Of a stretch of 64,000 nucleotides of DNA, positions 1 to 45,263 are shown piece by piece. The stretch's first letter is position 1. Each line of letters opens with the position of its first letter. The translations under genes were made by a program, and so were the position numbers. The notes beneath the pieces were generated by a model. That model was given only the letters and a program-made list of their open reading frames with translations, did no database searches and was not told the origin of the DNA. Source of the DNA: Candidatus Micrarchaeota archaeon (lineage in GTDB: Archaea > Micrarchaeota > Micrarchaeia > Norongarragalinales > Norongarragalinaceae); assembly GCA_037444485.1 (NCBI GenBank), contig JBBIMI010000003.1, forward strand, positions 1,461-65,460, read 5' to 3'.

Positions 1-1501
1 CAGTAAGCCCGCTGACTATTGGTGTTTTGACTGCGGGAGGCGCTTCCATTAAATGCTTTTCAGTCAACTTGTGGTAAAAATTAGTTGGAATCTCGACCGT
101 CCTGCCTTGCTCGCCAGCTACTTTCTCTACGAGTTCAGGAGTAACCCCGTGGCTTTCATACAATAAGGCCATCGCCTCGTCGCTTAAAACGCCTTTCGCC
201 AGTACTTCGCTTGCCTTGCGCCTCGCGTTCTCAAGCGACGTGAAATACTTTTTTTCCTCGACGTCAATGATTTCGTGGATTTCGTTCAGGTTCTCGCTGT
301 ACTCCGGCCAAATTTTCTTGAAGTCGCGCGCATGCATTTCAAAGAGTTTCAGCAAGTCTATAGAGAGCTCGAATTCGTCCACGAAAGAGAAAATTCGGCG
401 TGCTAGAACGCGCAAGTTATACCCGCCGCCGGTGTTCGACGGCAGCGCGCCGTCCGTAAGTGCGAACAACAGCGAACGCGAGTGGTCCGCAATCGCGTAA
501 ACAGCTTGCATGGGGGCAATAGTTTTGTTTAATTGTTGAATGCTTAAACCGAGTGCTTTCGCGATCTTTTTTTTCTCTTCATTAAACGAACGCACGTTTT
601 CAACGTCCAGCGAAGAACTCAAGCGAATGTAATCGTCGAAAACTTTTTTTTCTACGCGCAAACCAGTTTCTTGCTTGAGGAAGTTCACTTCGTCGGGGAA
701 ACTGGCTTCGTAAATCGTCGCGTCACCCCGCGCGTACCACAACAAGCGTTCGAATCCCCAGCCGACGTCAACCACTTTCAACGGTAATTCAAGCATCCGG
801 TCGCCGTCCAAGTAATACTGCATGAAAACGTTGTTGACGAGTTCGCTTCCTTTCGAGAAACTCTCTATGCAGGGGCCGAAAGCACTATAGTCAGGCATCG
901 ACCAAACGTCTTCAGCGTAAGTCACATCGGTTTTCTTCAACCTCAACATCTTCGTCAACAACTCGTAATTGTAGGCGATCGTCTCGTCACGCCAATAGCC
1001 TTCCTTCGGGTAATCAAACGCTTTTTGTCCATACATGACGAAGCCAGTCAAGTGTCTTCCAGTGACGCCGACGTTCGCGATGTCAACGAAACGCAGGCAA
1101 GGCTGCGGCACCACGCACGGGTTCGCGGGATACTCGAAAACCGTCTTGCCGTTCTCGATGCGTTGAAAATCAACTACGTCAGCGATTACGAAAAACAAGT
1201 CTTCCCGCCAGCGGGAGAGGATTGGATACCGTTGGAGGACTTCATGGTCGTGCTTCGCCCAAAAATCGTTTAACTCGAGCAAAAAATCCACGTACTTTAC
1301 GTCAGAAGGAGTTTGTTTAAAGAAAGAGTAAGGCTCGTGGCTACTGTCGCCGCAGTTCGCGCGTTCACGCGCGGCCCAATACGCTTTGCCGCACTCGCGG
1401 CATTCAAAACGCTGGAAGCCCTCACGTTCAAACAACTCGCAGTCGTAATACTTTCCGTGTTCTCGCGAGAAACGCTTGCGTAACTCTTCCTTTGAAACCA
1501 A
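1..1501 (-). CDS. alaS: alanyl-tRNA synthetase, N-terminal ~500 aa (3' end lies beyond window start); TTG start
   Basis: Hand translation of the minus strand gives an uninterrupted frame from 1501 to 1. It begins MVSKEELRKRFSREHGKYYDCELFEREGFQRFECRECGKAYW (archaeal AlaRS N-terminal Zn/FW motif). It contains VDIANVGVTGRHLTGF (DIxNVGxTxRHxTFF-like), WGFERLLW and GGGYNLRVLARR motifs. It is absent from the ORF track because it is truncated and starts with TTG. Confidence 0.6.
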   Translation of the reverse strand, partial: MVSKEELRKRFSREHGKYYDCELFEREGFQRFECRECGKAYWAARERANCGDSSHEPYSFFKQTPSDVKYVDFLLELNDFWAKHDHEVLQRYPILSRWREDLFFVIADVVDFQRIENGKTVFEYPANPCVVPQPCLRFVDIANVGVTGRHLTGFVMYGQKAFDYPKEGYWRDETIAYNYELLTKMLRLKKTDVTYAEDVWSMPDYSAFGPCIESFSKGSELVNNVFMQYYLDGDRMLELPLKVVDVGWGFERLLWYARGDATIYEASFPDEVNFLKQETGLRVEKKVFDDYIRLSSSLDVENVRSFNEEKKKIAKALGLSIQQLNKTIAPMQAVYAIADHSRSLLFALTDGALPSNTGGGYNLRVLARRIFSFVDEFELSIDLLKLFEMHARDFKKIWPEYSENLNEIHEIIDVEEKKYFTSLENARRKASEVLAKGVLSDEAMALLYESHGVTPELVEKVAGEQGRTVEIPTNFYHKLTEKHLMEAPPAVKTPIVSGLT

Positions 1502-1553
1502 ATTTCAAAACCCCGCATTGTTGAAGAAAGAAAAAACACGGTTGTTTAATTGC

Positions 1554-2066
1554 TTAACGCTTTACCGCTTGCGCTGAAATAGAAGGCGCTCCCGGCATCG
1601 CCTGCGTTACGATTTTCGCCTCGCGTTTTTTTCGAAGCGCGAACAAGCCGGGCTTGCTTGAATGCGGGTTGCGTAAAACTACTTCATAATACTGGTGTTC
1701 TCCGTCTTCACCAACCCAATAACTTCCAACCAGCTCGAGATTGCGGTGCTTGCGTAAAGCGCGTTGCTCGGCAAACCACTGCCATGATTTGCCTGGATTC
1801 TCGAACTTGCGCGTCTTGCCTGGCTTTCTCCCCAAGTCAGGCTTTCTGCGCCTACGCTTTCCCCGCGGCACTCGCACGCGCACTAACACGAATTCTTTCT
1901 TTGCTTTGAAACCAAGCTCGCGCGCTCGAGCCAAATTCGTGGGGCGAACGATGCGTTGCACGCTTTCCTGCTCGCGCCATTCCCGCAAACGTTTTTTGTA
2001 CAAGGAAGAGCGCGACGCGTAGCCTTGCTCGAAAGACTGCTTCAAGTACTTGTAGAATCCAGTCAC
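1554..2066 (-). CDS. rpl15e: 50S ribosomal protein L15e
   Basis: 170 aa, MTGFYKYLKQSFEQ... with basic RRRRK and WQWF motifs typical of L15e; GTG start in ORF track. Confidence 0.9.
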   Translation of the reverse strand: MTGFYKYLKQSFEQGYASRSSLYKKRLREWREQESVQRIVRPTNLARARELGFKAKKEFVLVRVRVPRGKRRRRKPDLGRKPGKTRKFENPGKSWQWFAEQRALRKHRNLELVGSYWVGEDGEHQYYEVVLRNPHSSKPGLFALRKKREAKIVTQAMPGAPSISAQAVKR

Positions 2067-2439
2067 TTGAAATCACCCTTATTCTCGGACGCGCTTTAAA
2101 AAAAAACGGGAAAGCGCGGCGCCGAACATCTAAAGCGAAAAAACAGAATTCGCTTGCAAGGTTTTTGTTTGGCAAAGTATTTAATTCTTTTTGAATAAAA
2201 AATTCGGCGTCTAACCTGCAAGTAGTTGATTAAATGAAAAACGGGCTGGCGAACAGAAATTAGATTGCGAAGAAACGAAAAAAGAAAAAAAGAATTCGCT
2301 ATTCAAGCAATCACTCTAAAGAAAATGCTTTAAACGAATTCAAGTTGTTCTAGACAAGCCTGTTCCGAGTACGTTTCAAGTACGTTATCGCGAGTGCACG
2401 GGTCTTAAAAACTCGCACTAGAAAGTGAAAGTTGCTTTA

Positions 2440-2521
2440 AAAAAACAGATAAAAAGAAGATGAATAAAAAAGGAAAAAAGAATAAAAAAGAAAAAATAAA
2501 AAAGAAAAAAAAGAAAAAAAA
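2440..2521 (+). repeat. ~80-nt polypurine (A-rich, AG) tract immediately upstream of SAMP-like gene
   Basis: aaaaagaagatgaataaaaaaggaaaaaagaataaaaaagaaaaaataaaaaag... seen directly; gives rise to spurious poly-Phe ORFs on minus strand. Confidence 0.8.
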
Positions 2522-2731
2522 TTGTTTAAGATGAAGATTAAGCTCACGATAGACGACAAACGAAAAAACTTTTCCGCGAGGCAGGGCGCTAGCGTGCGCG
2601 ACGTGATGCGCGAGACAGGCATCAACAACGAAGTCGTTGTTATTAAACTTAACAACAAGATTACGCATCCGGACGCGCTGCTGCATGAAGGCGACTCGCT
2701 TGAATTCGTACACGTTATTTACGGCGGGTAA
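2522..2731 (+). CDS. ubiquitin-like beta-grasp sulfur carrier / small archaeal modifier (ThiS/MoaD/SAMP family), C-terminal Gly-Gly
   Basis: 69 aa ending ...EFVHVIYGG; pattern IxLxx..G.SVRDV....GI...VVVIKLNNKI......L.EGDSLEF matches ThiS/MoaD fold; 1.8 kb upstream of an NcsA/TtuA-type thiolase on same strand. Confidence 0.75.
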   Translation: MFKMKIKLTIDDKRKNFSARQGASVRDVMRETGINNEVVVIKLNNKITHPDALLHEGDSLEFVHVIYGG

Positions 2732-3154
2732 AAAACCGGAAACAAAAATTCTTTTAACGAAAAACGGTTTTTTTAGCGCTCGCGCTCGCTCGCAGCCCGC
2801 GCGGGACTCGCATCCGCGCGTTGCGCGACCACGAGCGCGTGGTCGCTCATCACCGCGACTTCAAGCAACTCAATCCCGTGCCGTTCAAACTCTTGAGGCT
2901 TGCTTCGCAAGCCTTTAAAAATTCTTCCAGCTTCAACACCTCAAAAACAGTATTTCGCGCACTACTGCAAATGCGCCGTCCGCGCGTTCTGTCCCGGACA
3001 ATGCTCGCTCACGCTAGACATGACTTACGCCTCCGGCGGCGCAACATCCGCGCCGCTAAGAAGGCATTATAATCGCAAAGAATTTAGGGCTAATTCATCC
3101 CACGACTGAACTCGTGGGATTTCTCAGCCAAACGCATTAAAAAAAGGTGATCAA

Positions 3155-3766
3155 ATGAATCAAATTCCAGAAATAAAGAAAATCAAGGTTATTGGAATTA
3201 ATTATGGACGAAACTTTCCAGACCTGGAAAGATTGATGGAGCACGTAGAGCCAGGGATGCGCGTTGGTTTGGCATTAACAAAAGAAATGCTAGAATATGT
3301 GTTGAAATTAGAGGAAGGCGCAAAACCAAGAGCAGAATACCTTGCTTCTGATGAGTATCAATTCATCAAAAAATTGGTTGCAAAAATAACGGAAAAAAAA
3401 GCTGCTATAGTACCATTGTACGAAGAAAAATTCTTGAAAAAATTGCTGAAAGAGAATATTGGCATACTAAAAGAAGTGGAAAAAAAAGAATTTAGAATCA
3501 ATTATGATGTGCTTTTTGGTGGTGGAAGTTCAAAATCACCGTTTGAAATAAGGGAAGAAATAGTAAAAGAACTGGAAGCGCACCAAAAGAACCAAGCTTT
3601 GAGATTTAATAAGAAAATACTAGAAAAAATTATTAATGAAAAAGTTCACGTGGCAATCCTCGGACGCGAAGACCCAAGCGGAAACCCAAGTTCAACAATT
3701 GAAACAATTAAAAATGAGGGCACTAAATTAAAACCTTTAGAGTTTGAATTCCTTGAATTTGATTAA
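3155..3766 (+). CDS. hypothetical protein (compositionally AT-rich ORF, no recognisable family)
   Basis: 203-aa ORF with GGTGA Shine-Dalgarno 7 nt upstream of ATG; much lower GC than neighbours; K/E-rich; no motif I can assign. Confidence 0.5.
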   Translation: MNQIPEIKKIKVIGINYGRNFPDLERLMEHVEPGMRVGLALTKEMLEYVLKLEEGAKPRAEYLASDEYQFIKKLVAKITEKKAAIVPLYEEKFLKKLLKENIGILKEVEKKEFRINYDVLFGGGSSKSPFEIREEIVKELEAHQKNQALRFNKKILEKIINEKVHVAILGREDPSGNPSSTIETIKNEGTKLKPLEFEFLEFD

Positions 3767-3819
3767 CTTGAATTCTGCATGCTATTAGCAGTCTATCCGC
3801 ATACGATTTAGTCAAGCCT

Positions 3820-4428
3820 TCACTTAGGCTGCTTGCGTTTTTCCCTCGCTAAACGCGTTAACGCTGGAACTAGCGAGATTATGACAACTAAGATAATCGC
3901 GACGCTCACGTACTCTACTAAGTTAGGAATCAGGCTGCCTAAAAAAAATCCTGCGAGCGTTACCGACAAAACCCATGAAACCCCGCCTAAAACGTTGAAA
4001 AACAAGAAGCGTAAATAATTCATTTCCCCGGTGCCAGCAAAGGTTGGGGCGATCGTGCGCACGACAGGAATCCAGCGCGCGAAGAAAATAGTTTTGCCGC
4101 CGTGCTTTTCGAAAAACCGTTTAGTCTTCTCCAAGTTTTTCTTGTTCAAGTAATCGTCGAGAAAATGTCTTTCCTTCTCGAACACGCGTTTTCCGAAACG
4201 CTTGCCTAAGAAATAACCGAGAGAATCGCCGGCGATCGCCGCAACCACGCAGACTACAATGGTTTCACTCACGCCGATTACGCCCTTCGAAGCAAGCAAG
4301 CCTGCTGTGAACAAAAGCGTGTCGCCGGGCAGGAAAAACCCGGCGAGCAACCCAGTTTCTGCGAACACGATGAAAAACAAACTCGCGTAGCCGAAAGACA
4401 AAATCAATTGCTCGACGTTGAAAAACAT
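3820..4428 (-). CDS. DedA/SNARE-associated (VTT domain) family membrane protein
   Basis: 202 aa; ...FAETGLLAGFFLPGDTLLFTAGLLA... and GKTIFFARWIPVVRTIAP typical DedA signature; multiple TM segments. Confidence 0.8.
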   Translation of the reverse strand: MFFNVEQLILSFGYASLFFIVFAETGLLAGFFLPGDTLLFTAGLLASKGVIGVSETIVVCVVAAIAGDSLGYFLGKRFGKRVFEKERHFLDDYLNKKNLEKTKRFFEKHGGKTIFFARWIPVVRTIAPTFAGTGEMNYLRFLFFNVLGGVSWVLSVTLAGFFLGSLIPNLVEYVSVAIILVVIISLVPALTRLAREKRKQPK

Positions 4429-4527
4429 TTTTTCATCCCTAAAAAGAAAACGCTATAAACTTGAAGCGAACACTTTATTTAAAAGCAATTAAAAAGAAAT
4501 TCAAACGATTGCTTAAAGGTTTTAAAA

Positions 4528-5553
4528 ATGAAGCTACAGACACCAAAATACACGCCAAAACACACGCCAAAATGCAGTAAGTGCGGCAAACGCGAAGCAA
4601 TAATCGAAATACGTTACGAAATACGTTACGCTAGCGCAAACTTCTGCAAAAACTGTTTTCTAGAGTATTTCGAGAAACGCGTGAAGAAAGCGAATTACGA
4701 CTTTAAACTCGCGCGACGCGGCGACGTAATCGCTGTAGGTGTCTCGGGTGGAAAAGACAGCACTGCAATGCTTCACGCACTCTACAAACTCGCGCGCGAA
4801 ATCGGCGAAATCGTTCTCGTGCCAGTTCTCGTGAATGAAGGCATCCGCGGATACCGCGACGAGAGTGCCGAAAAAGCGCGCGAAGCCTGCGAGCGCTTCG
4901 ACTTAAAACTTCACGAGTATTCCTTCGAGAAAGAATACGGTTTGACTATGGACTCTGCGACTGCTTTCGAGAAGAGAAAGCATCCAGCTTGTTCTTACTG
5001 CGGCGTTTGGCGCAAGGCGTTGTTAAACAAAGCCGCGCTTGAAGTTGGAGCTAACAAGCTCGCAATCGGCCACAATGCCGACGACACGGTGCAAACTTTT
5101 TTAATGAATTTAATGCGTTGCGACATGCCGCGCTTGACGCGCTCTGGCGCATTGAGTGGGGTTGCGGAACGCGAAGGCTTCGTGCGCCGCATAAAGCCGT
5201 TGGTTTACGTTCTAGAACGCGAAACCGCGCTTTACTGCGAATTACTGGAATTGCCTTACTACCGCGGTTCGTGTTCCTACTCTACTGAAGCAATGAGGGG
5301 GGTAGTGAAATACTTTCTGAACGCCGCCGAAGAAAAACACCCGGGCACTAAACTCGCGTTATTGAATTCTTTCCTTGCGCTGAAGAACGAATTAAGCGGA
5401 AAAAGCGGATTGAATCCAGTGTACTCGAATGAATCGTTGAAAAAATGCGGCGAGTGCGGCGCGCCTTCGGCAAGCGCATTATGCCGCGCTTGCGTTTTCT
5501 TGAAAGAATTGAAGGCTGAAGGCTTTCAATTCACAACAGCCCGCCGCGAATGA
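4528..5553 (+). CDS. ncsA: tRNA 2-thiouridine synthetase, PP-loop ATPase of NcsA/Ncs6/TtuA family with N- and C-terminal CxxC zinc fingers
   Basis: SGGKDS PP-loop motif, CSKCGK...CKNC N-terminal and CGECG...CRAC C-terminal Zn fingers, GHNADD motif; N-terminus has short tandem peptide repeats (KYTPKHTPK, IRYEIRY). Confidence 0.8.
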   Translation: MKLQTPKYTPKHTPKCSKCGKREAIIEIRYEIRYASANFCKNCFLEYFEKRVKKANYDFKLARRGDVIAVGVSGGKDSTAMLHALYKLAREIGEIVLVPVLVNEGIRGYRDESAEKAREACERFDLKLHEYSFEKEYGLTMDSATAFEKRKHPACSYCGVWRKALLNKAALEVGANKLAIGHNADDTVQTFLMNLMRCDMPRLTRSGALSGVAEREGFVRRIKPLVYVLERETALYCELLELPYYRGSCSYSTEAMRGVVKYFLNAAEEKHPGTKLALLNSFLALKNELSGKSGLNPVYSNESLKKCGECGAPSASALCRACVFLKELKAEGFQFTTARRE

Positions 5554-6160
5554 ATTCGATTCCTATCCCCACCAGCAAGAGCCCCATTACCTTGCTGGAA
5601 ACGTCTATAATCTGGCTTCCCAACACGCGCTGCAGCAAGTTCGAGTAATGCAATATTATCCACGACAACACCAACGCAGTTAAAAGCGCGCTCAACGGAA
5701 TCCAGTAACCGAATTGGTTTGACAACAAAATCAAGCTACTCAACAAACCAGGTCCGGTAAGCAACGGGGTTGCTACAAGCACAACCACCGCATTCAAATC
5801 CTGTTTCTTCACGCCGTGATTTAATGAAAAACCAAGCACCGTCTCCAAACCCAGCAGCGAGAGCAGAATGCCGCCCGCGATTCTAAAACTGCCTAACGAG
5901 ATTCCCAACGCGTTCAACAACGCGGTGCCGGCAAACAAGAAAATCAATGCGAGAATCCCAGCAATCAACACTGCCTTGTTAGCGGCTTTCATGCGCTGCG
6001 AGTCGTTAAAGCCTTTTGTAAGCGCGATGAAAGCAGGCAAGCTCGCAAACGGGTCCATGATTACGAATAACGTGATGAACGACGTCATGAAACTAGCAAG
6101 CAAGTCCATGAAAAAGACAAACGAAGAAAAAGCATAAAAACATAGTGGAAGAAAAAACAT
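5531..6160 (-). CDS. MarC family (UPF0056) integral membrane protein
   Basis: 209 aa, polytopic; FVIMDPFASLPAFIALT motif characteristic of MarC/YhgN family; 23-bp convergent overlap with ncsA end. Confidence 0.7.
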   Translation of the reverse strand: MFFLPLCFYAFSSFVFFMDLLASFMTSFITLFVIMDPFASLPAFIALTKGFNDSQRMKAANKAVLIAGILALIFLFAGTALLNALGISLGSFRIAGGILLSLLGLETVLGFSLNHGVKKQDLNAVVVLVATPLLTGPGLLSSLILLSNQFGYWIPLSALLTALVLSWIILHYSNLLQRVLGSQIIDVSSKVMGLLLVGIGIEFIRGGLL

Positions 6161-6177: not shown

Positions 6178-7332
6178 TTAAACGCGTAACACGAAGTCCA
6201 TGTCCCCAAACGCCTTCAAAAACAAAGGCAGGCCCGCCACGCGTCCAGCAGCCAACGCGAAGTCAAGGCAATCGTTTCCAAGCGAGTTCTTGAAGCCAGC
6301 GATAACGGCATGCAAACGCAGTTCCTTGCTGAACTCACGCCTCCACGCGCGCTCGTAACTTAAAGTTTCTCCATTTTTCAGAAAACTGGCAGCGCAACGC
6401 GCAGCGATTCGCGCGCAGTTACCGCCAAACACTACGCCGCCACCCGTGGTTGCCTTCACTTGTCCGGCAGCGTCGCCAACAAGCATGACGCGTCCTTCCT
6501 GCGTTTTCTTGCGAACAGCGACTGGAATCACCGCAGTGAATTCCCTAATTTTTTTAGCTTTGGAAAGGGTTTCTCGCACGAGGGGTTCTTTAAACAAGGC
6601 TTTTTTTCCAGCGTCGAGTTTCTTGAAGTTTTTCACGCCCAACCCGATTTTAACGCCCAGCCCGACGCGCGCGACACCTTCTTGAGCTGGAACAATCCAA
6701 GCGAAAAACCCTGGAAACGCGCGAGAATTCAAGAAAACTTGCACGAAATCTTTGCGTGGTGGTTCCGCGTTTGAAAACTCCGCTTCGTAACCTAAAACGA
6801 GTTCCTTGATTTTCGGGAAACCAAGCGCGTTCGCAGTGAACGACGCTGCCCCGTCGGCTGCAATGACGATTCGCGCGTCGAAAAACTTTTTTCCACTGAA
6901 AACACGCACGAAATCCTTTCCTTGTTTTGCCTTCCCTTGCTTTACTTTTCCTTGCTTTATGCCTGTCGCCTTGCAGTTAAACAAAAACTTTGCGCCTGCT
7001 TTTCGCGCTTGCTTAAAGCATTCTTCGTCGAAACGCTTGCGGTCAAGCACTAGCGCGACAGGCTCGCTGCGCGATGCTTCTAGCCGCGCGTTAGGCGAGT
7101 GAAACGAAACGCCACGCACTTGATTTAACACTGCAGGCGCGTAATTCGCTTCAAGCGATTCGAGGCCGCGTTTAGAGTAAAGCGCAGTGCATTTTCCTTG
7201 TTTTCCTGGTTCTGCGTGTTCTTCCAAAACAAGTGTTTTAAGGTTCAATTGCGCGCAATCTCTGGCTGCGATGCAGCCGACGGCGCTCGCGCCGATTACC
7301 GCAACGTCGAAAACGTTTTTCAAGTCCAACAA
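6178..7332 (-). CDS. geranylgeranyl reductase family FAD-dependent oxidoreductase (digeranylgeranylglycerophospholipid reductase-like)
   Basis: DVAVIGASAVGCIAA dinucleotide-binding N-terminus, LVGDAAGQV motif; contains internal KQGKVKQGKAKQGK peptide repeat. Confidence 0.8.
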   Translation of the reverse strand: MLDLKNVFDVAVIGASAVGCIAARDCAQLNLKTLVLEEHAEPGKQGKCTALYSKRGLESLEANYAPAVLNQVRGVSFHSPNARLEASRSEPVALVLDRKRFDEECFKQARKAGAKFLFNCKATGIKQGKVKQGKAKQGKDFVRVFSGKKFFDARIVIAADGAASFTANALGFPKIKELVLGYEAEFSNAEPPRKDFVQVFLNSRAFPGFFAWIVPAQEGVARVGLGVKIGLGVKNFKKLDAGKKALFKEPLVRETLSKAKKIREFTAVIPVAVRKKTQEGRVMLVGDAAGQVKATTGGGVVFGGNCARIAARCAASFLKNGETLSYERAWRREFSKELRLHAVIAGFKNSLGNDCLDFALAAGRVAGLPLFLKAFGDMDFVLRV

Positions 7333-7690: not shown

Positions 7691-8412
7691 CGCAATTCCA
7701 TGCGTAGTTTCAACAATCCCCAAACCATTTCCAACGCTGTTTTGAAAACCCCGAAAACGCCTGCTTCAAGCGGCCCGCCTGGAACGTGCTTCCAACGAAC
7801 AGGAATTTCTTTGATTAAAAAACCGTGTTTTTTGGCTCTGTAAAGCAATTCAACGTCGAACTCGAAGCCGGAGTGCGTCAATTCGCGCGCGAGAATCTTT
7901 CCGGGTTTTTTCTTGAAGGCCTTAAAACCGCACTGCGTGTCGCTGAAACGCAAGCCAAACAACAAGCGCACCAACGCGTTGAAAATGCGGCTTGACGCGC
8001 CGCGGTGCGGCGCGACTCCGCGCACTACCGCGCCTTGCGCGGCGCGAGAACCGATTACCACTTCGCTTGTCTTGAGTGCTTCAAGCGCTTTAGGGATTTC
8101 TGTTGGTGGAGTCGCCGCGTCAGCATCGTAAACCACGAGCGCTTTCCCCCTTGCCGCCTCCAAGCCTTTCTTCACGCCGCCGCCTTTACCTAATCGCTTT
8201 GGAAAATGCATTAACTTTAGTTTGAGCCAAGAGTTTTCTTCGCCGAACTCGCGCACGATTTTGCTGGTTGCATCGGTCCCGTCGTCGACGACCACGAGTT
8301 CGAAAACGATTTTCTTGACGCGGAGGAAACGCGTGAGCGCTTCTAGCGTGGGGCGAATGCGTTTCGCTTCGTTGTGCGTTGGGATTATTATTGAAAGCAA
8401 GCTCAGTTCCAC
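7687..8412 (-). CDS. GT2 family glycosyltransferase, dolichyl-phosphate mannose/glucose synthase-like
   Basis: LSIIIPTHNEA...VVVDDGTDAT...VYDADAATPP...SDTQCGFKAF motifs of DPM1/AglJ-type GT-A fold. Confidence 0.8.
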   Translation of the reverse strand: MELSLLSIIIPTHNEAKRIRPTLEALTRFLRVKKIVFELVVVDDGTDATSKIVREFGEENSWLKLKLMHFPKRLGKGGGVKKGLEAARGKALVVYDADAATPPTEIPKALEALKTSEVVIGSRAAQGAVVRGVAPHRGASSRIFNALVRLLFGLRFSDTQCGFKAFKKKPGKILARELTHSGFEFDVELLYRAKKHGFLIKEIPVRWKHVPGGPLEAGVFGVFKTALEMVWGLLKLRMELR

Positions 8413-8506
8413 CGTCAGCTTTCATTCTCTTCTTTTATTGAATCTTTTATTGAAAGATTTAAATGCGCGCTTGATTAAAAACAATTGTTTCGCTTTTTTT
8501 CTGTGA

Positions 8507-9247
8507 ATGCGAGGGGTGGTTGAAGGGTTGAAGGTAGTAATTTTGTGTGGGGGTAAAGGCACGCGGCTGCGGCCTTACACGCACTCTGTTCCAAAACCAA
8601 TGCTTTTGCTTGGACGCAAACCTATTCTAGAATACACGATTGATAAACTCAAGGCTGAAGGTTTTAAGGAAATAGTGCTCGCAGTAGGACACTTAAAGGA
8701 ACAAATAATGGATTACTTCGGCGACGGCAAAAACTTCGGCGTCAAAATCCGTTACTCTATAGAACACGATGGTTTGGGGGATGCAGGCGCTTTAAAAAAC
8801 GCTTGGAAATTCGTTGAAAAAAAAGAAAACTTTCTGCTTTTGATGGCCGACCAACTTACAAACCTCGACTACAGGAAGATAGTGAGGGAACACGAGAAAA
8901 GCAAGCTTATTGCTACAGTCGCGTTAAAGCGCGTCGGCATTCCACTCCAGTGGGGAATTTTCGAGACTGACTCGCGCGGCAGGATAGTGTCTCTAGCTGA
9001 AAAACCAATCATCGAAAAACTCGTGAACACTGCGATTTACGTCTTCAACAAGAAAGTCTTTGAATTCCTTCCAGACAAAGGAATCCTTTCGACTGACGTG
9101 ATTCCAAAACTTATTGCGGAGAAAGCCATTCAAGGATTCGTTTTCGACGATTACTGGGTTGACGTTGGAAGCATTCGCGAGTACGAGGAAATCAATCAAG
9201 CCGTCAGCCTAGCAGACTTGATTTCACACGTCAAAAACCGTGATTAA
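8507..9247 (+). CDS. sugar-phosphate nucleotidyltransferase (NTP_transferase domain)
   Basis: VVILCGGKGTRLRPYT... (GxGxRL signature), 246 aa; divergent from GT2 gene. Confidence 0.8.
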   Translation: MRGVVEGLKVVILCGGKGTRLRPYTHSVPKPMLLLGRKPILEYTIDKLKAEGFKEIVLAVGHLKEQIMDYFGDGKNFGVKIRYSIEHDGLGDAGALKNAWKFVEKKENFLLLMADQLTNLDYRKIVREHEKSKLIATVALKRVGIPLQWGIFETDSRGRIVSLAEKPIIEKLVNTAIYVFNKKVFEFLPDKGILSTDVIPKLIAEKAIQGFVFDDYWVDVGSIREYEEINQAVSLADLISHVKNRD

Positions 9248-9866
9248 GGCTTACAGCAATCAAGGCTTTTTCAAAAGGCTTTTTCAAAAAACAAAGAAAA
9301 CCCGTGTGTGTCAAACCCTTGGTTTCAGGCCTGCAGCCTTGCTCGCGCACTAGCCATTCGCGCGTCACGCATTCAAGAGAACGCTCGTGCTTGAACCCGA
9401 CCCGCAAGCCTTCGAAAACGAATTTCTTCAACTGTTCAACGTTAGGCGTGAAACCAACGCACCACCCGCCCTCGCGAAGCGCGCCGAACGCGTGCGCGAC
9501 AAGCTTTTCAGAATCAGCGCAGTCGAGAGTCACTAAGTCAACATTTTTTTCTTCTATTCCCTTGAACGCGTCCTTCTCAACGATTTCCACTACGCGCTCC
9601 AAGCCTGCTTTCGCGACGTTTTTCTTACTCAATTCTGCGAACTCTTGCCTGCGCTCGTAAGAATGCACGAAACCTTTTTCGCCCACAATGTTTCCCAAAA
9701 AAATTGCGAGAAAACCAGAGCCCGCACCAACGTCAACAACTTTCCCGCCGAACCCTAAGCCAGTAAAACCAGCGATTAGCGAGGCGTCCTTCAACAAAAC
9801 CACTTGGGGACCGCGCTCGAATTTCTTGAACAAGCTAACATCAATCAACTCTACACCACCAACCAA
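9231..9866 (-). CDS. trmI: tRNA (adenine-N1)-methyltransferase TrmI/Gcd14-like SAM-dependent methyltransferase
   Basis: VVDVGAGSGFLAIFL SAM motif I, 211 aa; 17-bp convergent overlap with upstream gene end. Confidence 0.7.
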   Translation of the reverse strand: MVGGVELIDVSLFKKFERGPQVVLLKDASLIAGFTGLGFGGKVVDVGAGSGFLAIFLGNIVGEKGFVHSYERRQEFAELSKKNVAKAGLERVVEIVEKDAFKGIEEKNVDLVTLDCADSEKLVAHAFGALREGGWCVGFTPNVEQLKKFVFEGLRVGFKHERSLECVTREWLVREQGCRPETKGLTHTGFLCFLKKPFEKALIAVSLNHGF

Positions 9867-10040
9867 AAACTATTCGCCAACAACAAAACAAAATAAACTC
9901 ATACTACCAACAAACAAAACAACAAACAACTACACAAACCAAACAACAAACTTATGCCAACAACAAGAAACCCGATAACAAACTCGACAACAGACCCGAG
10001 AGACTCGACAACAAACCCGAGAGACTCGACAACTGGTAAC
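9867..10040 (+). repeat. CA-rich low-complexity tract ending in tandem copies of acaaacccgagagactcgaca
   Basis: caacaaaacaaaataaac...cagacccgagagactcgacaacaaacccgagagactcgacaact; related motif cccgagagattcgacaa also at 31641. Confidence 0.7.
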
Positions 10041-10146
10041 ACTTATTTTTTAGAAACCGGTTTTATGAGAACGACTTAATAATAATTTTACCTTAATAAT
10101 TTAATAATAATTTTATCTTAATAATAACTTCACGCAATAACTTCAT

Positions 10147-10330
10147 GCCCCTGTAGCTTAGTGGTTAAAGCGCCTGTCTTGTACGAAGCTTTTCTTTCAA
10201 AAAAGAAGTTGAAAAAAGAAGAAAAGAAAAAAAGTTTTGAAAAAAGAAAACAAAAAAGAGAAAAGAAAAAAAAGAAGAAAAAGCGTTTCAGGAAAACAGG
10301 AGAACGAGAGTTCAAATCTCTCCAGGGGCT
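10147..10330 (+). tRNA. tRNA-Thr(UGU) with 111-nt canonical-position intron (10184..10294)
   Basis: Manual fold: acceptor GCCCCTG/CAGGGGC, D-arm GCTT-AGTGGTTA-AAGC, anticodon stem CCTGT/ACAGG, loop CTTGTA|intron|A, T-arm GAGAG-TTCAAAT-CTCTC, discriminator T; intron is purine-rich low complexity. Confidence 0.75.
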
Positions 10331-13500: not shown

Positions 13501-14609
13501 CTAGTTCCTTGAGCTTGGGAAGCCCTCAACTCGCTGAGTTCTGCTTTTGCCGCAGCCAATTCTTCAGAAGCAGCCCTCCCAAAGTGAAGCGAACCTACTG
13601 CGAGAATAGTGCTAACCAAGAGATCGTACTTGTTCCAAGTGCTTGAATACGAAACCCAATCCTCGTAGAAAGAAGGAATCAGCATGTTTGCTCCGTTCGC
13701 ACCCAAATTCATGAAGCCAGTGACTTCGCTTCCAACCAAGTGTTGTTCTGAATCAAGTTGGTCAACTTCTTCACCGGAAGCTGACGAAACGAATTTTCCT
13801 TCCTGGCATTGTTTTGAAGTGCTGCTGCAATAATTCAAGTCTTTGTCTAACAACACAGCGTAAGTTACTCGCCCTTGAATGTTTTCGTTGTCTAAAGCGC
13901 ATTGTTTGGGATTCATTTCTTGCGCTTTCAGCAAGTCGCACAAGCTTGCTTCGTTTCGCCCCGGGGTTCCGCCCGCCACAACGATTTTCAAGTCCCTGCA
14001 TTTTCCAGGCTTTTCTTCAGGCGCTATTCCTGTAACTCTGCCTGGAAGTAAACCCATTTTTTGTAGTTGTTCGACAACAAAGTTTTTCGGTTTGCCGACT
14101 TGTTGAGCGTATTTTTCAGCGACGCTTACTGGAATGCTCGCAGTAGTCTTCACGCGTCCTTTGTCGTCGAAGTACTTGTCCAAGCAAGGCTTTACTTCTT
14201 CAGCCTTCAAGCTTTGACAATACTCTCTCAAACGCAAGTCTTTAGCTGCTTGTTGTTCGCTCACGCCGAGGATTCCGGCGACTTGAATCAAACTAATTTC
14301 TTCACCGCCGATTACAGCGCCCTGCACCGAAGGCGGAAAACGGTGTTTTCCCGCGTCCTGCATGTTCTTCAACGCTTCAGCAAACGGCAAGAAATTTATT
14401 TCGTTAGGCGAAAAACCCAGCGTGTTCGCCCACAACGATTGCACTTCCTGCGGAGTCATTTCAGAAACTCTACAGAAAACGCTGGCTTGAAGCGAAACCG
14501 CTTGCTGCGCTGAAGCTGGTTGAACTGGTTGAGCGAAACCGTAAGGAGCGAAGAGTTCCAGGAAAAGCAAAACCCCTGTTGTAAAGGCGAAAAACTTGAG
14601 TTTCTGCAT
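10506..14609 (-). CDS. giant (1367 aa) secreted/membrane-anchored cell-surface protein, hypothetical
   Basis: N-terminal signal peptide MQKLKFFAFTTGVLLFLELFAPYGFAQP; several internal hydrophobic segments; C-terminal TM anchor LLAFLAMLAALAASIALV followed by basic tail RLKYAKRV; no enzymatic motif recognised. Confidence 0.7.
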   Translation of the reverse strand: MQKLKFFAFTTGVLLFLELFAPYGFAQPVQPASAQQAVSLQASVFCRVSEMTPQEVQSLWANTLGFSPNEINFLPFAEALKNMQDAGKHRFPPSVQGAVIGGEEISLIQVAGILGVSEQQAAKDLRLREYCQSLKAEEVKPCLDKYFDDKGRVKTTASIPVSVAEKYAQQVGKPKNFVVEQLQKMGLLPGRVTGIAPEEKPGKCRDLKIVVAGGTPGRNEASLCDLLKAQEMNPKQCALDNENIQGRVTYAVLLDKDLNYCSSTSKQCQEGKFVSSASGEEVDQLDSEQHLVGSEVTGFMNLGANGANMLIPSFYEDWVSYSSTWNKYDLLVSTILAVGSLHFGRAASEELAAAKAELSELRASQAQGTRAAQFFSETSQSYRDLENLLRTNPTGVNPLDIQFTREVTNRLGSESAKKVRDKLAVGNLYLTGEELDELFGVTGNVGRAIPAEFQTEVGQVARSMQAYKSVEDPVKKLEAETKLLKKRADAYADIAKYAGRRVYLGLILGATWLGPARILYSINDRVFFSLKGSTPAKDSFAKLYVNHPEIAGKFRKASDLFGTGRLLESVANTFGTSFSAPSKAFSAGKVFLINNPKGIDSSNSFTSISTADNIKIKTSWRGDSYATNFEDVSSFSENDKYTSLQFKLYNTFPNVVVNTKNQAILYSYVLTLIPQFIFARGVAQTVGAPSILGITTFLLVNDYIVSFDPYMYKGQECDKATLAHFKTGYAASTIAGWALMVLPSLSLFKKIALAQSAWVKAPIGTLNFINNIQTPFAFQWYFGSKAQQYVSSCADPEYKVLTYQKLPEAVKKKVSGVAEKLQPVTDVLSQLGIGTAAQQAFQQKENPLSKMTEILNFKAGLKDQKGFVQPEALYYLQIEKSVFSAKGGLFDQLAGKGCPFAENYLSNDKAVRLSATDGIAFYDKNGNTLQKFDSDDWKLRALARLMTQENGRVILPNKLFEANIAGCAGTLLNILYDGRISFATSCNAIDCLKQQLSALTKRIVSDDLTPFLGRVSTVVTDKGVTSISGNEISFTRVSSTSGKIGTEVNAPSIDDKNTLQQTQLLGSTLQVSSDGRVFLSGPTGSSVSGQEIGFLKTIIGSQGKIEFDTVNKRLYLFVYVLSASGVQAIKDFGVVGTAKNADGSTTPKLSITEKTGMESGLQQALQQIQGAGGIQSFETKDHIYAFTKDAQGNPILRVIDKKTGQATDYRITGEPYRDANGNLVVPTDKGNFVFGFKQGPDGGPWVEAKGPDGLSEFLPLLAARGQNGILTFNPTTGAINVYNGQDIPLSPEFAQKGIAFSGDAAGNVRGVPQDNFFAPPAPTTTAGGGVSPLALPSWPRELLAFLAMLAALAASIALVRLKYAKRV

Positions 14610-14657
14610 GAAAATAAAGAAGCCGCCAGAGTTTAAATAAACTATTGTTTAAATTTT

Positions 14658-24773: not shown

Positions 24774-25091
24774 ATGCGTTGCTTCAATGAAAAAGTTAAG
24801 GAAAAAGTTTGGATTGCTTGCTCGCGCATCCCGCGCGGACGCGTGACGACTTACGCGGAAATAGCGCGCGCAATCGGCGCGCCGCGCGCAGCGCGGGCGG
24901 TCGGCAACGCTTTGAACAAAAGTCCCGGAATGCCTCGCGTGCCCTGCCACCGTGTTGTTCCCTCAAACGGCAAGCTGGGCGGTTTTGCTTTAGGAAGCGC
25001 AAGAAAAAAGAAGTTGCTTGAACGCGAAGGCGTGCGCGTTTCACGCGGCAAAATAATTGATTTCCGGAAAAAGTTTTACCGCTTGCATTAA
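24774..25091 (+). CDS. ogt: methylated-DNA--protein-cysteine methyltransferase (Ogt/MGMT C-terminal domain)
   Basis: PCHRVV active-site motif, TTYAEIARAIG helix; 105 aa. Confidence 0.8.
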   Translation: MRCFNEKVKEKVWIACSRIPRGRVTTYAEIARAIGAPRAARAVGNALNKSPGMPRVPCHRVVPSNGKLGGFALGSARKKKLLEREGVRVSRGKIIDFRKKFYRLH

Positions 25092-25472
25092 ACTAATTCG
25101 AAGTTCAGTTCCTTTCCGCGCGAGTCGAAAACGCGAGTGCTTTTCACTGAAAAAGGCGGGCACGAGATAAAGTGGTAACGCGCAGTGCGCGAAAAGAAAA
25201 GCAAGTCCGCGCGCGAAGGCAGTGCTGGCGGCACGGGATGGCTGTGAAAACTCGCTAGTTCCTTCAAGTTCGCTGGCAAGTGCCACTGCGAAAAACTCGA
25301 GTGAGTGGGTGCGTACTCGCTCAACGGCGGGATGATGACTTCATTCAGCGTAACTCCGCTCTCACTTTCTTCGCCGCGTAAAAGCGCGATAAACTCGTCG
25401 GGAAAAACGTTTTTCGCTCCCTCGAGAACGCTGAAAAAAGCGTTTTTCGTAATCTTTATTACTTTATTCAAT
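25088..25472 (-). CDS. JAB1/MPN/Mov34 (JAMM) metalloprotease, desampylase-like; TTG start inferred
   Basis: E...HSHPVPPALPSRAD = JAMM motif E-x(n)-HxH-x(7)-S-xx-D; N-terminal portion of ORF-track call is translation of an upstream repeat array so start trimmed. Confidence 0.7.
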
Positions 25473-25483
25473 CCAAACCACTT

Positions 25484-25557
25484 GAGTGAAACAATTAAGT
25501 AAAACAATTAAGTGAAATCAAGTAAATAAAAATTGAGTAAAACAATTAAGTGAAATA
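25484..25557 (+). promoter_or_regulatory. tandem direct repeats aacaattaagt(g/a)aaa (3-4 copies) in divergent promoter region
   Basis: gtgaaacaattaagtaaaacaattaagtgaaatcaagtaaataaaaattgagtaaaacaattaagtgaaataacg between JAMM gene and tyrS. Confidence 0.55.
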
Positions 25558-43760: not shown

Positions 43761-45263
43761 ATGCGCAAAAAATTTACTAAAACCGAACTAGAAAAATTAA
43801 AGCGCGTTTTCGCGGGCGAACGCGGGTTGAAGAAAGTTCCGCGTAACTCTGATTTCTTGAGAGTAGTCAGCGTAACTCCCCGCGAACGCAAGGAACTGCG
43901 CACGCGGCCAGTGCGTTCGCTGAGCGGGGTCAGCGTGATTGCAATCATGACGAAGCCAATGCCGTGCCCGGGCGCTTGCGTTTACTGCGTGGACAGCCCG
44001 CTCGCGCCCAAGAGTTACACTGGCTTTGAACCAGCTGCGCTGCGCGCGCGCCAAAACAATTTCGACGCGTTTCAACAAGTCGAATCGCGCTTGCGGCAAT
44101 TGCGGGAAATCGGGCACGAGCCAAGCAAGTGCGAACTCGTCGTAATGGGCGGGACTTTCAACTCGCTGCCGCTCGCTTACCAAAAGAGTTTCTTGAAGAA
44201 GGCGTTCGACGCTTTCAACGAGGTTGAAAGCCCTTCGCTCGAGCAAGCGCTTAAGGAAAACGAGCGGGCGCGATACCGCGTTGTCGGCGTGACTTTCGAA
44301 ACGCGGCCAGACTGGTGTTCAAGAGAGCACGTCAAGCAAATGCTTTCTTACGGCGCTACGCGCATCGAACTAGGCGTGCAGTGTCTCGACGACTCTGTTT
44401 ACGAAAAAATGCTACGCGGCCACAGCGTAGAGGACGTCGCCAATGCGACGCGCGAGTGCAAAAACGCTTTCCTTAAAGTAGGTTTTCATTGCATGCCAGG
44501 TTTGGTTGAAAGCGAAGCGCGGGACGAACGCATTTTCGCGAAAATCTTCAGCGACGAACGCTTTCGGCCAGATATGCTTAAACTTTATCCAGTCCTAGTA
44601 ATGCCTGGAACAGAATTGTACGAGCAGTGGCAACGAGGCGAATTCAAGCCGTACGACGAAAAGCAAGCGGCACGCGTTATAGCACGCATGAAACGCTTGG
44701 TGCCGCGTTACTGTAGGATAATGAGGGTTGAGCGCGACATCCCCACTAACTTGATTGCTGCAGGAGTCAAGAAAAGCAACCTCAGAGAACTCGCAAACGC
44801 GGAAATGCGTGAACGCGGTTGGAAGTGTTCTTGCATTAGATGCCGCGAGGTTGGCTTAAAACAATTGAAAGAAGGAATCAAAATCGATTTCAGCAAGCTC
44901 GAACTCAACAGCTTAAATTATCAAGCGAGCGGTGGGACTGAAGTGTTCCTCAGTTTTGACGACGCGGAGACGGACGCGTTGGCCGCATTCCTGCGTCTTC
45001 GCGTTAACGCTGACGGAGTTGTTGGAGTGCGAGAACTACGCGTGTTCGGCGAGCAAGTCGCAGTCGGCGAAGAGCCGAAAGCAAACAGCATGGCAGTGCA
45101 ACACAAGAGCTTGGGCCGCAAGCTGCTTTCACGAGCAGAGGAAATCGCGAAAAACGAGTTCGACGCGCGAAAACTCTTTGTTTTAAGCGGCGTTGGAGCA
45201 AAACATTACTACAGGAAGCTCGGCTACCGCGACGACGGTTTCTACGTCTCCAAAAAACTGTGA
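43761..45263 (+). CDS. elp3: Elongator protein 3 homolog (radical SAM + GNAT tRNA U34 carboxymethyl-modification enzyme)
   Basis: 500 aa; N-terminal Cys cluster MPCPGACVYC (radical SAM), TIM-barrel core, C-terminal GNAT acetyl-CoA domain (...VLSGVGAKHYYRKLGYRDDGFYVSKKL). Confidence 0.9.
   Translation: MRKKFTKTELEKLKRVFAGERGLKKVPRNSDFLRVVSVTPRERKELRTRPVRSLSGVSVIAIMTKPMPCPGACVYCVDSPLAPKSYTGFEPAALRARQNNFDAFQQVESRLRQLREIGHEPSKCELVVMGGTFNSLPLAYQKSFLKKAFDAFNEVESPSLEQALKENERARYRVVGVTFETRPDWCSREHVKQMLSYGATRIELGVQCLDDSVYEKMLRGHSVEDVANATRECKNAFLKVGFHCMPGLVESEARDERIFAKIFSDERFRPDMLKLYPVLVMPGTELYEQWQRGEFKPYDEKQAARVIARMKRLVPRYCRIMRVERDIPTNLIAAGVKKSNLRELANAEMRERGWKCSCIRCREVGLKQLKEGIKIDFSKLELNSLNYQASGGTEVFLSFDDAETDALAAFLRLRVNADGVVGVRELRVFGEQVAVGEEPKANSMAVQHKSLGRKLLSRAEEIAKNEFDARKLFVLSGVGAKHYYRKLGYRDDGFYVSKKL

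Follow-up and report, generated by a model that had tools for sequence, protein, structure and literature searches.

Gene content of the locus

The window, that is the whole 64-kb stretch of Micrarchaeota DNA that was analysed, contains a gene for a small ubiquitin-like protein (Ubl) upstream of a gene for a PP-loop tRNA thiolase (Table 1). The original prediction had placed the two 1.8 kb apart on the same strand. All of its ORFs were recovered where it had put them, and the gap was computed at 1796 bp, occupied by an orphan ORF and a DedA/VTT gene. To the left of the pair lies ribosomal protein L15e, which keeps the same position in all Micrarchaeota loci. The MarC gene to the right is also kept in L002, L073, L085, L091 and L092.

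Table 1. Features in and around the carrier-thiolase locus, with the unlinked Elp3 and JAMM genes of the window.
Feature	Position	Strand	Evidence
Ribosomal protein L15e, divergent left anchor of the conserved neighbourhood	1554..2066	-	Pfam Ribosomal_L15e, E 3.4e-37
66-aa ThiS/SAMP2-type ubiquitin-like sulfur carrier	2531..2731	+	Pfam ThiS, PDB matches, AF2 fold
Putative terminator: 8-bp inverted repeat AAAAACCG ... CGGTTTTT and 7-T run (2768-2774)	2731..2774	+	Read from sequence
1000-bp segment without counterpart in close relative L002	2764..3763		blastn, L002 vs window
203-aa orphan ORF	3155..3766	+	34% GC vs 49% for the window; no family match
DedA/VTT-domain membrane protein	3820..4428	-	Pfam VTT_dom, E 1.4e-22; NCBIfam DedA family, 164.5 bits
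NcsA-type [4Fe-4S]/PP-loop tRNA 2-thiouridine synthetase	4528..5553	+	PF01171, TIGR00269, 6SCY, motifs
MarC/NAAT-family membrane protein, convergent right neighbour of NcsA	5531..6160	-	Pfam MarC, E 5.6e-38
JAMM/MPN+ metalloprotease, candidate Ubl-deconjugating enzyme	25088..25507	-	Prok-JAB, AfJAMM, motif E...HSHPVPPALPSRAD
Elp3 radical-SAM/GNAT enzyme, C5 side chain of wobble uridine	43761..45263	+	TIGR01211, PDB 6IA8

The small protein had been predicted to have a ThiS/MoaD fold, a Gly-Gly end and a length of 69 aa. The fold and the terminus were borne out. A 69-aa ORF also exists, starting from a TTG at 2522 (2522..2731), but this is an alternative start, and the gene callers used in two public assemblies begin at the ATG at 2531 to give 66 aa. 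The protein belongs to Pfam ThiS (PF02597; 37.8 bits, cut-off 22.5, E 2.9e-9) and ends in ...VIYGG immediately before the stop codon; no other credible GG-ended beta-grasp ORF was found in the window. Its AF2 model (pLDDT 84.8) is a beta-grasp of the order strand-strand-helix-strand-strand, matched by Foldseek to Mth1743 (TM 0.84), TtuB (TM 0.70-0.76), ThiS, ubiquitin and MoaD, with MoaD-type structures giving a poorer match. The best PDB match of the sequence was PfSAMP2 (5LDA_B, E 5.6e-8, about 35 bits), followed by PF1061 and Mth1743 and, more weakly, TtuB (E 0.0096) and ThiS (E 0.11). Alignments of homologues (n=42 and n=38 sequences) show no variation at the terminal GG, which forms the exact C-terminus of all Micrarchaeota orthologues; many bacterial TtuB-like genes, unlike the window carrier, encode extra residues past it. 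When the protein was compared with beta-grasp families, as had been proposed, the ThiS threshold was passed but that of Pfam SAMP2 was missed (14.5 bits vs 27). The latter model (PF21965), with arCOG00535, represents the SAMP2 group of archaeal ThiS-type modifiers, and a match to it is precomputed for many homologues of the carrier. The best NCBIfam matches carry the name ThiS and are both under cut-off. The 66-aa gene deserves the name SAMP2/TtuB-type sulfur carrier.

The downstream gene, now labelled 'TIGR00269 family protein', likewise deserves the name NcsA-type tRNA 2-thiolase. It matches the PP-loop family (PF01171, E 1.5e-16) and passes TIGR00269 (79.1 vs 62.75 bits), which with arCOG00042 defines the NcsA/Ncs6/Ctu1 family of tRNA U34 2-thiolases. 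The NCBIfam equivalog models for NcsA (196.8 bits, cut-off 500) and TtuA(Pyrococcus) (172.8 bits, cut-off 450) were both not reached. Both zinc fingers of the original prediction are present, comprising C16, C19, C40 and C43 at the N-terminus and C307, C310, C319 and C322 at the C-terminus, and Pfam gave weak matches to TtuA_LIM_N and zn-ribbon_14. In a 27-sequence alignment, all of these cysteines except C43 are invariant, as are the SGGKDS motif (S73-S78) and the three [4Fe-4S] cluster cysteines C155, C158 and C249. The last three align with Cys142, Cys145 and Cys233, the cluster ligands of Methanococcus maripaludis NcsA (MmNcsA; PMC10067955). This enzyme (6SCY) is also the best match among solved relatives (E 2.3e-49), ahead of PhTtuA (1.2e-41) and TthTtuA (4.7e-29). 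The phmmer scores follow the same order (169.8, 144.0 and 102.8, respectively) and therefore group the thiolase with NcsA-type loci and not with TtuA-type loci of bacteria. For the Micrarchaeota orthologues, too, MmNcsA is consistently a better match than both TtuA proteins, and TtuA-type bacterial loci reverse the pattern (about 90 bits for MmNcsA vs 230-340 bits for TtuA). By sequence similarity, the thiolase is closer to NcsA (U34) than to TtuA (U54), and we infer from these scores that its target is U34 rather than U54.

Two further genes had been pointed out in the window. The identity of Elp3 was upheld by TIGR01211 (613 bits, cut-off 350) and by a full-length match to PDB 6IA8 (E 2.9e-137). 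The JAMM gene had been described as having a desampylase-type motif. It passes its family threshold (Prok-JAB, 34.9 bits, cut-off 25) and its metal-binding motif (E...HSHx7SxxD) is intact, but its closest relative is AfJAMM (1R5X, E 4.7e-18; aligned over PDEF...HSHPVPPALPSRAD) and not the proven desampylases. PfJAMM1 was not recovered with the JAMM query at E 0.01. Elp3 and JAMM lie 38 kb and 20 kb from NcsA, respectively, and both are unlinked to it. They show that parts of the pathway exist, but give no evidence of linkage.

As originally predicted, the window encodes no E1-like activator (UbaA/MoeB/ThiF; PF00899, arCOG01676). No ThiF/MoeB-like ORF was found when all ORFs of at least 60 aa, except the V-ATPase genes, were scanned with Pfam, and phmmer searches of all stop-to-stop ORFs with E. 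coli MoeB and a DPANN ThiF (L089) gave no match. These searches covered the 64-kb window, part of a 66.9-kb contig. No E1 occurs within 6-10 kb of NcsA at any Micrarchaeota locus. By analogy with the homologous systems, the E1 is probably encoded elsewhere in the genome; an unlikely alternative is a lineage without a canonical E1, its carrier being activated in another way.

Conservation of the carrier-thiolase linkage

A same-strand carrier was found upstream of NcsA in 12 Micrarchaeota genomes, namely the window and L002, L004, L037, L073, L084, L085, L086, L088, L090, L091 and L092. The two genes abut or overlap in L004, L037 and L090 and are 93 bp apart in L086. A broader sample of 80 loci, drawn from archaea and some bacteria, includes 29 with a carrier upstream on the same strand, and on a Woesearchaeota-like DPANN contig SAMP2, NcsA and ThiF form one tight operon. 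The NcsA proteins are only 43-58% identical across genomes that keep the adjoining carrier. Because the linkage recurs in independent genomes, it is more than chance, and its conservation in Micrarchaeota and beyond supports a functional link between carrier and NcsA. The original proposal that the carrier is functionally tied to an NcsA-type tRNA 2-thiolase is supported, the family assignments by the ThiS and TIGR00269 thresholds and the tie by conserved synteny.

The window locus is what remains of a pairing of genes that has long been recognised in both archaea and bacteria. The SAMP2-UbaA-NcsA pathway was published between 2011 and 2014, and work on Haloferax, Thermus and Thermococcus has characterised it. 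Linkage between ThiS-type Ubls and the arCOG00042 PP-loop ATPase was published in 2010 (PMC2948915). Since both the gene association and the pathway were already known, the pair is real but ordinary.

A proposed sulfur relay and its alternatives

Taken together, these data make it highly probable that the locus represents, in Micrarchaeota, the archaeal tRNA-thiolation system of SAMP2, UbaA and NcsA, the counterparts of which are Urm1/Uba4/Ncs6 in eukaryotes and TtuB/TtuC/TtuA in bacteria. By analogy with these homologues, an E1-like adenylyltransferase from elsewhere in the genome would adenylate Gly66 of the carrier, leading to a thiocarboxylate. NcsA would grip the tRNA by its two zinc-finger domains, and its PP-loop would adenylate C2 of the wobble uridine (presumptively U34 of tRNA-Lys/Glu/Gln). 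The free iron of the three-cysteine [4Fe-4S] cluster would then take sulfur from the carrier thiocarboxylate, or from sulfide, to give s2U34, while Elp3 would supply the C5 side chain on the same base. As in Haloferax, proteins may in addition become modified with the carrier through its Gly-Gly end, and the JAMM protease may take it off again. The sequence data themselves show family membership, the predicted fold, intact catalytic motifs and conserved gene linkage, whereas the homologues are the source for thiocarboxylation, U34 specificity, protein conjugation and an E1. A genome-reduced DPANN archaeon would thus keep a ubiquitin-like sulfur relay for wobble-uridine thiolation, plus Elp3 and a JAMM protease, which fits the view that the ancestral job of ubiquitin-like proteins was tRNA modification.

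The closest known set is that of Haloferax volcanii (SAMP2, UbaA and NcsA, with HvJAMM1), which likewise combines a ThiS-type Gly-Gly Ubl with a two-zinc-finger NcsA-type PP-loop thiolase and has Elp3 and JAMM encoded in its genome; s2U34 on tRNA-Lys(UUU) is the product to be expected. HvNcsA requires SAMP2 and UbaA, and is itself sampylated (PMC4048286). Unlike the Haloferax set, however, the window carrier falls under the Pfam SAMP2 cut-off, the thiolase under the NCBIfam NcsA cut-off, and the JAMM is AfJAMM-like. Moreover, carrier and NcsA are unlinked in haloarchaea (PMC2948915), whereas the Micrarchaeota pair appears to have been adjacent ancestrally. MmNcsA has the PP-loop, the two zinc sites and all three cluster cysteines in common with the window enzyme, but in M. 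maripaludis sulfide is used and no Ubl takes part (PMC11323500), whereas the Micrarchaeota lineage keeps a linked carrier. In vitro, MmNcsA and TtuA need only sulfide (PMC10067955, PMC11323500), so in a sulfidic setting the carrier may not be required.

Among solved structures, the carrier is closest to a protein of Thermococcales, PfSAMP2 (PF1061), of which we take TK1093 to be the orthologue. TK1093 is UblA of T. kodakarensis, a ThiS-family Ubl that experiments have shown to be the tRNA-thiolation carrier (PMC11323500). In Thermococcales one carrier serves both TtuA and NcsA, and there are further MoaD-type Ubls, whereas the window, which samples 64 kb of a small genome, shows one thiolase and one Ubl. 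The Thermus thermophilus TtuB/TtuC/TtuA system resembles the locus in having the carrier upstream of the thiolase, in its [4Fe-4S] chemistry (TtuB-COSH is desulfurized by the TtuA cluster; PMC7138817) and in the predicted fold of the carrier. Its TtuA targets U54 (s2T54), whereas the enzyme of the window groups with NcsA. The eukaryotic system of Urm1, Uba4 and Ncs6-Ncs2 (Ctu1-Ctu2) with Elongator is likewise a sulfur relay, built on a Ubl of dual function, that includes Elp3 and an Ncs6-type enzyme and yields xm5s2U34. The window carrier, in contrast, is ThiS-type and not Urm1-type, and an Ncs2/Ctu2 partner is not expected in Micrarchaeota since archaeal NcsA acts alone.

The small protein could instead be mainly or only a protein modifier (sampylation), with NcsA its conjugation target or regulator and sulfur coming directly from sulfide. 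Such a role would fit the JAMM gene in the window, the use of sulfide by MmNcsA and TtuA in vitro, the rescue of T. kodakarensis Ubl mutants by elemental sulfur, and the covalent attachment of poly-SAMP2 to HvNcsA at Lys204 (PMC4048286). However, linked ThiS-type carriers (TtuB, SAMP2, UblA and Urm1) donate the thiolation sulfur in every characterised system, and tight operons of the carrier-thiolase(-E1) kind are what a sulfur relay would lead one to expect. A main or exclusive modifier role is unlikely, and the roles of modifier and sulfur donor are in any case compatible.

That the PP-loop enzyme is a TtuA making 2-thioribothymidine at position 54, and not s2U34, is less probable again. All of its motifs are common to TtuA and NcsA, PhTtuA scores only moderately below NcsA (146 vs 171 bits) and the two NCBIfam models are similarly close (172.8 vs 196.8 bits), but MmNcsA is the better match both for the window protein and for its orthologues in Micrarchaeota, the preference of true TtuA loci is strongly the other way round, and the window encodes Elp3, a modifier of U34. 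Moreover, s2T54 is known from thermophiles, which counts against this reading. A role of the small protein as ThiS or MoaD in thiamine or molybdopterin synthesis, with its proximity to NcsA coincidental, is barely credible. It is in line with membership of Pfam ThiS and with the ThiS names of the sub-threshold NCBIfam matches, but not with the poorer match of MoaD-type structures or with a carrier that stays beside such divergent NcsA proteins; the Pfam scan of the window, moreover, gave no ThiG, ThiF, MoaE or Moco gene. Archaeal ThiS-family genes also lack association with thiamine genes (PMC2948915).

DedA and gene turnover between the pair

The original prediction regarded the orphan and DedA alike as unrelated genes inserted between carrier and thiolase. 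This holds for the orphan, which forms a strain-level indel (2764-3763) with the GC-rich spacer, but not for DedA, which is a conserved resident. A blastn comparison revealed that L002 has 92 bp in place of the 1000-bp segment, which consists of a non-coding GC-rich (57%) stretch (2775-3125) and the AT-rich orphan ORF. The spacer is structured (RNA fold z-score -4.2), and an Rfam search of it matched no family. The orphan clusters as a singleton, gave no match in Pfam, NCBIfam or PHROG searches, and is not part of the thiolation system. L073 also has an orphan in this slot, unrelated to that of the window. DedA, on the other hand, separates the carrier from NcsA in eight genomes, all from a single Micrarchaeota subgroup (the window, L002, L073, L084, L085, L088, L091 and L092), on either strand, and was not seen in the NcsA loci of other phyla.

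The ancestral order was plausibly L15e(-) followed by carrier(+) and NcsA(+), the latter two adjacent or overlapping. DedA would have been gained between them in one subgroup, and the slot between carrier and DedA appears to gain lineage-specific genes repeatedly. In the window, the inverted repeat and T run directly 3' of the carrier stop codon probably form a transcription end, which would leave the carrier monocistronic in this genome. With DedA on the opposite strand and the 1-kb orphan segment present, carrier and NcsA are now probably transcribed separately; the 1.8-kb gap, the opposite-strand gene and the probable terminator together suggest that co-transcription has been lost here.

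Since DedA stays between the pair in eight genomes despite strand flips and turnover of the neighbouring slot, we considered whether it was recruited in this subgroup as a third functional partner of the carrier-thiolase pair. This is doubtful, somewhat more so than a main or exclusive modifier role for the carrier. If recruited, DedA may act in the uptake or delivery of sulfur or selenium species, or may tether tRNA thiolation to the membrane. What is less ordinary about this locus is that DedA is conserved as a neighbour and that the slot next to the carrier turns over fast.

Identity of the carrier and the thiolase

The window comes from a 66.9-kb contig belonging to a Candidatus Micrarchaeota (DPANN) archaeon. 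All ORFs named in the original prediction are present where it placed them; their coordinates are listed below with those of the other features. The carrier had been proposed as a Gly-Gly-ended protein of the ThiS/MoaD fold, and HMM search bears this out: it scored 37.8 bits against Pfam ThiS (curated threshold 22.5, E 2.9e-9) and fell below threshold for the narrower SAMP2 model (14.5 vs 27 bits). The proposed length of 69 aa is possible from the upstream TTG, but two public assemblies start at the ATG, giving 66 aa. The C-terminus reads VIYGG, with the stop codon immediately after. Among solved structures, the top sequence match was Pyrococcus furiosus SAMP2 (5LDA_B, identical in sequence to PF1061, E 5.6e-8), followed by Mth1743 (E 1.5e-6), TtuB (E 0.0096) and Thermus ThiS (E 0.11). 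An AlphaFold2 model built from 38 homologues (pLDDT 84.8) predicts a strand-strand-helix-strand-strand order, and Foldseek matched this predicted fold to Mth1743 (TM 0.84) and TtuB (0.70-0.76), and also to ThiS, ubiquitin and MoaD. No other credible GG-ended beta-grasp ORF was found in the window.

A word-indexed search with the 66-aa carrier returned only 2 matches; relatives were therefore gathered by exhaustive HMMER and profile search. Exhaustive HMMER over 1.8 billion representatives recovered 53, nearly all of 62-70 aa with a (Y/S)GG end, and no alignment column of the carrier is invariant apart from those of the two terminal glycines. The 13 nucleotide differences from an 89%-identical orthologue alter 6 codons synonymously and 7 others mostly conservatively, and the final 16 residues are the same. 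A role as ThiS or MoaD in cofactor synthesis was considered and rejected. Downstream of the gene lies an 8-bp inverted repeat followed by seven T. Upstream, between a TTTAAA box and the start codon, is an A-rich tract of ~80 nt (GAAAAA-type repeats), in place of which the close relative L002 (GCA_037446875.1) has a different, less repetitive sequence.

The thiolase matched the PP-loop family (E 1.5e-16) and passed the TIGR00269 threshold; its closest homologues bear the annotation 'TIGR00269 family protein [Candidatus Micrarchaeota archaeon]'. Its best solved homologue is the M. maripaludis NcsA (MmNcsA), a '[4Fe-4S]-dependent U34-tRNA thiolase' (6SCY, E 2.3e-49), ahead of the TtuAs of P. horikoshii (1.2e-41) and T. 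thermophilus (4.7e-29). As predicted, it lies 1.8 kb downstream of the carrier on the same strand and retains both zinc fingers: C16, C19 and C40 at the N-terminus and C307, C310, C319 and C322 at the C-terminus are invariant in an alignment of 27 sequences, as are SGGKDS (73-78), C155, C158 and C249. The last three cysteines align to Cys142, Cys145 and Cys233 of MmNcsA, the three ligands of its catalytic cluster (PMC10067955).

The possibility that the enzyme is instead a TtuA was weighed by scoring every thiolase of ~85 loci against these three typed references. The loci form two cleanly separated groups: those of TtuA type, mostly bacterial, reach 230-340 with the two TtuAs and ~90 with MmNcsA, and the pattern is the opposite in those of NcsA type. 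The window thiolase scores 169.8, 144.0 and 102.8 against MmNcsA, P. horikoshii TtuA and T. thermophilus TtuA, respectively. These scores place it with the NcsA-type loci and a TtuA identity was rejected; judged from sequence, the window enzyme and its Micrarchaeota orthologues are NcsA-type. It falls below the NCBIfam equivalog thresholds for both NcsA and Pyrococcus TtuA, models which appear to have been built for narrower clades. In L002, NcsA is called as two ORFs (197 + 143 aa), reflecting either a frameshift or pseudogene or an assembly error.

Coordinates and gene orders of the features discussed (window unless a locus is named)
Feature	Coordinates	Strand	Remark
L15e gene	1554-2066	-	
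A-rich tract	2440-2520		
Carrier from TTG	2522-2731	+	69 aa
Carrier from ATG	2531-2731	+	66 aa
Carrier-DedA slot	2732-3819		
Segment absent from L002	2764-3763		1000 bp
GC-rich spacer	2775-3125		
37-nt hairpin	3106-3142		
Hairpin copy	54053-54088		
Orphan ORF	3155-3766	+	203 aa, between carrier and thiolase
DedA/VTT membrane protein gene	3820-4428	-	between carrier and thiolase
NcsA-type thiolase gene	4528-5553	+	1796 bp downstream of carrier
MarC gene	5531-6160	-	
Rfam tRNA	10147-10330	+	
1367-aa ORF	10506-14609	-	
JAMM protein gene	25088-25507	-	
Rfam tRNA	40432-40545	-	
Elp3 gene	43761-45263	+	
Rfam tRNA	55557-55613	+	inside ORF 55518-56432
L002 locus			carrier, DedA(-), NcsA; 89%-identical relative
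L002 repeat of L15e	494-541		48 bp; window 1849-1896
L002 NcsA	1315-2327		
L073 slot	4235-5328		carrier, 337-aa orphan, DedA(+), NcsA
L084 slot	8331-9365		carrier, DUF3850, hypothetical, DedA(+), NcsA
L085 locus			carrier, DedA(+), NcsA; gaps 31 and 6 bp
L088 slot	6440-7136		carrier, NUDIX, DedA(+), NcsA
L091 slot	8238-9340		carrier, small or NUDIX genes, DedA(-), NcsA
L092 slot	9071-9333		carrier, small or NUDIX genes, DedA(-), NcsA
L089 operon	8001-10046		SAMP2, NcsA, ThiF
L088 PEP-utilising enzyme gene with intein	11202-14439		
L090 PEP-utilising enzyme gene with intein	13077-16649		

Linkage of carrier and thiolase across genomes

The link between carrier and thiolase is real, and the case for it is built on other genomes rather than on the window genome. 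The neighbourhood L15e(-), carrier(+), NcsA(+), MarC(-) is repeated in Micrarchaeota whose NcsA is only 43-58% identical to that of the window. The two genes abut or overlap in three Micrarchaeota loci (L004, L037 and L090), and in a fourth (L086) 93 bp separate the carrier from the NcsA gene downstream. In a broad, unselected sample of archaea and some bacteria, a same-strand upstream carrier was found at 29 of 80 NcsA/TtuA loci, ~25 of these directly abutting the thiolase. Since the pairing is repeated across independent genomes, a chance association was rejected. Moreover, a Woesearchaeota-like DPANN contig (L089) encodes SAMP2 (67 aa), NcsA (306 aa) and ThiF (307 aa) in a tight operon of overlapping or abutting genes, with a ThiI-like THUMP gene nearby. 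At least one DPANN lineage therefore includes the E1-like activating enzyme in the unit.

In 2010 Makarova and Koonin described how ThiS-family Ubl genes of archaea repeatedly associate with the arCOG00042 PP-loop ATPase, and they proposed tRNA modification as the ancestral Ubl role (PMC2948915). TIGR00269/arCOG00042 is so widely distributed that it has been used as a marker in archaeal phylogeny, and the annotation of another DPANN lineage includes a 66-aa 'small archaeal modifier protein 2'. The locus is therefore not novel in kind; it is a further case of a described pairing, and its presence in Micrarchaeota is unsurprising. What remains curious is DedA as a conserved neighbour, the rapid turnover in the slot beside the carrier and a presumed E1 outside the sequence examined.

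Carriers adjoining TtuA-type thiolases, mostly in bacterial loci, extend beyond the Gly-Gly by one or two residues (GGAA, GGAT, GGSS, GGTL, GGCC; L048, L050, L052, L059, L062, L068, L070, L072, L074-L076, L081), which points to C-terminal processing before activation. In the archaeal carriers GG is the C-terminal end. In two Micrarchaeota genomes (L088, L090), the gene for a PEP-utilising enzyme (PPDK/PEP synthase) downstream of the locus contains an intein (Intein_splicing, LAGLIDADG).

DedA and the variable slot

Both genes between carrier and thiolase had been regarded as unrelated insertions. This holds for the orphan, which is a genuine indel: alignment places 1000 bp of the window against 92 bp in the 89-91%-identical L002. 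DedA, however, is a resident rather than a stray. Eight genomes, all from one Micrarchaeota subgroup, have it between the carrier and NcsA genes, and it was not found at the NcsA loci of any other taxa sampled. Four of the eight have it on the + strand and four on the - strand, so it must have flipped at least once while staying in place.

The 1000-bp segment looks like recently acquired foreign DNA. Its GC-rich half (57% GC) gives a more stable fold than shuffled sequences do (z -4.2); this spacer contains no ORF on either strand, no Rfam family (one sub-threshold match, E 0.04) and no repeat within the window except a 37-nt hairpin. The hairpin lies just upstream of the orphan ORF and has an 86% copy 51 kb away. 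The orphan itself (34% GC) has no detectable relatives, and it is unrelated to the slot orphan of L073; neither has a PHROG match. Across genomes the slot between carrier and DedA holds nothing, NUDIX, DUF3850 (a PHROG RNA-binding protein) with a hypothetical gene, unrelated orphans or DUF4258, and it may be an insertion hot spot. In L002, a 48-bp stretch between carrier and DedA matches part of the L15e gene at 94% identity.

Activation, proposed mechanism and other window genes

The predicted absence of an E1-like activator from the window was upheld by Pfam scans of ORFs and by phmmer with E. coli MoeB and the L089 ThiF against all stop-to-stop ORFs; phmmer with these queries found nothing in ~90 loci either, and no E1 lies within 6-10 kb of NcsA in the Micrarchaeota loci. 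According to the 2010 survey, most archaea have arCOG01676 E1 enzymes, the only exceptions being those methanogens that have no Ubls either (PMC2948915). Given this survey, the strictly conserved terminal Gly-Gly and the L089 operon, an unlinked E1 is expected elsewhere in the genome. Elp3 and the JAMM protein, 38 and 20 kb distant from the thiolase locus, indicate pathway completeness rather than linkage. Both identities stand, but the JAMM protein, noted for a desampylase-type motif, is nearest to AfJAMM rather than to demonstrated desampylases.

The observed family assignments, motifs and linkage, together with the predicted fold, can be read by homology with SAMP2/UbaA/NcsA, TtuB/TtuC/TtuA, UblA and Urm1/Uba4/Ncs6 (PMC4048286, PMC7138817, PMC11323500, PMC10067955), from which we infer the chemistry, the tRNA position and conjugation. 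Gly66 of the carrier would be adenylated and thiocarboxylated by an E1, and the PP-loop of NcsA would adenylate C2 of U34. The free iron of the three-cysteine [4Fe-4S] cluster would then abstract and transfer the sulfur, and Elp3 would build the C5 side chain. In addition, the carrier may be conjugated to proteins and removed again by the JAMM protease.

Three tRNAs were called by Rfam and none by ARAGORN. In one, the anticodon is UAU and the intron ~39 nt long; in another, the anticodon is UGU and the AT-rich intron 113 nt long. The third match is weak (31 bits), lacks a D-arm and lies inside an ORF. A genuine tRNA-Ile(UAU) would be of note. The promoter and terminator scan used bacterial models and is not meaningful for an archaeon. 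The 1367-aa ORF, with a hydrophobic N-terminus, a C-terminal anchor and no Pfam match, probably encodes a lineage-specific surface protein.
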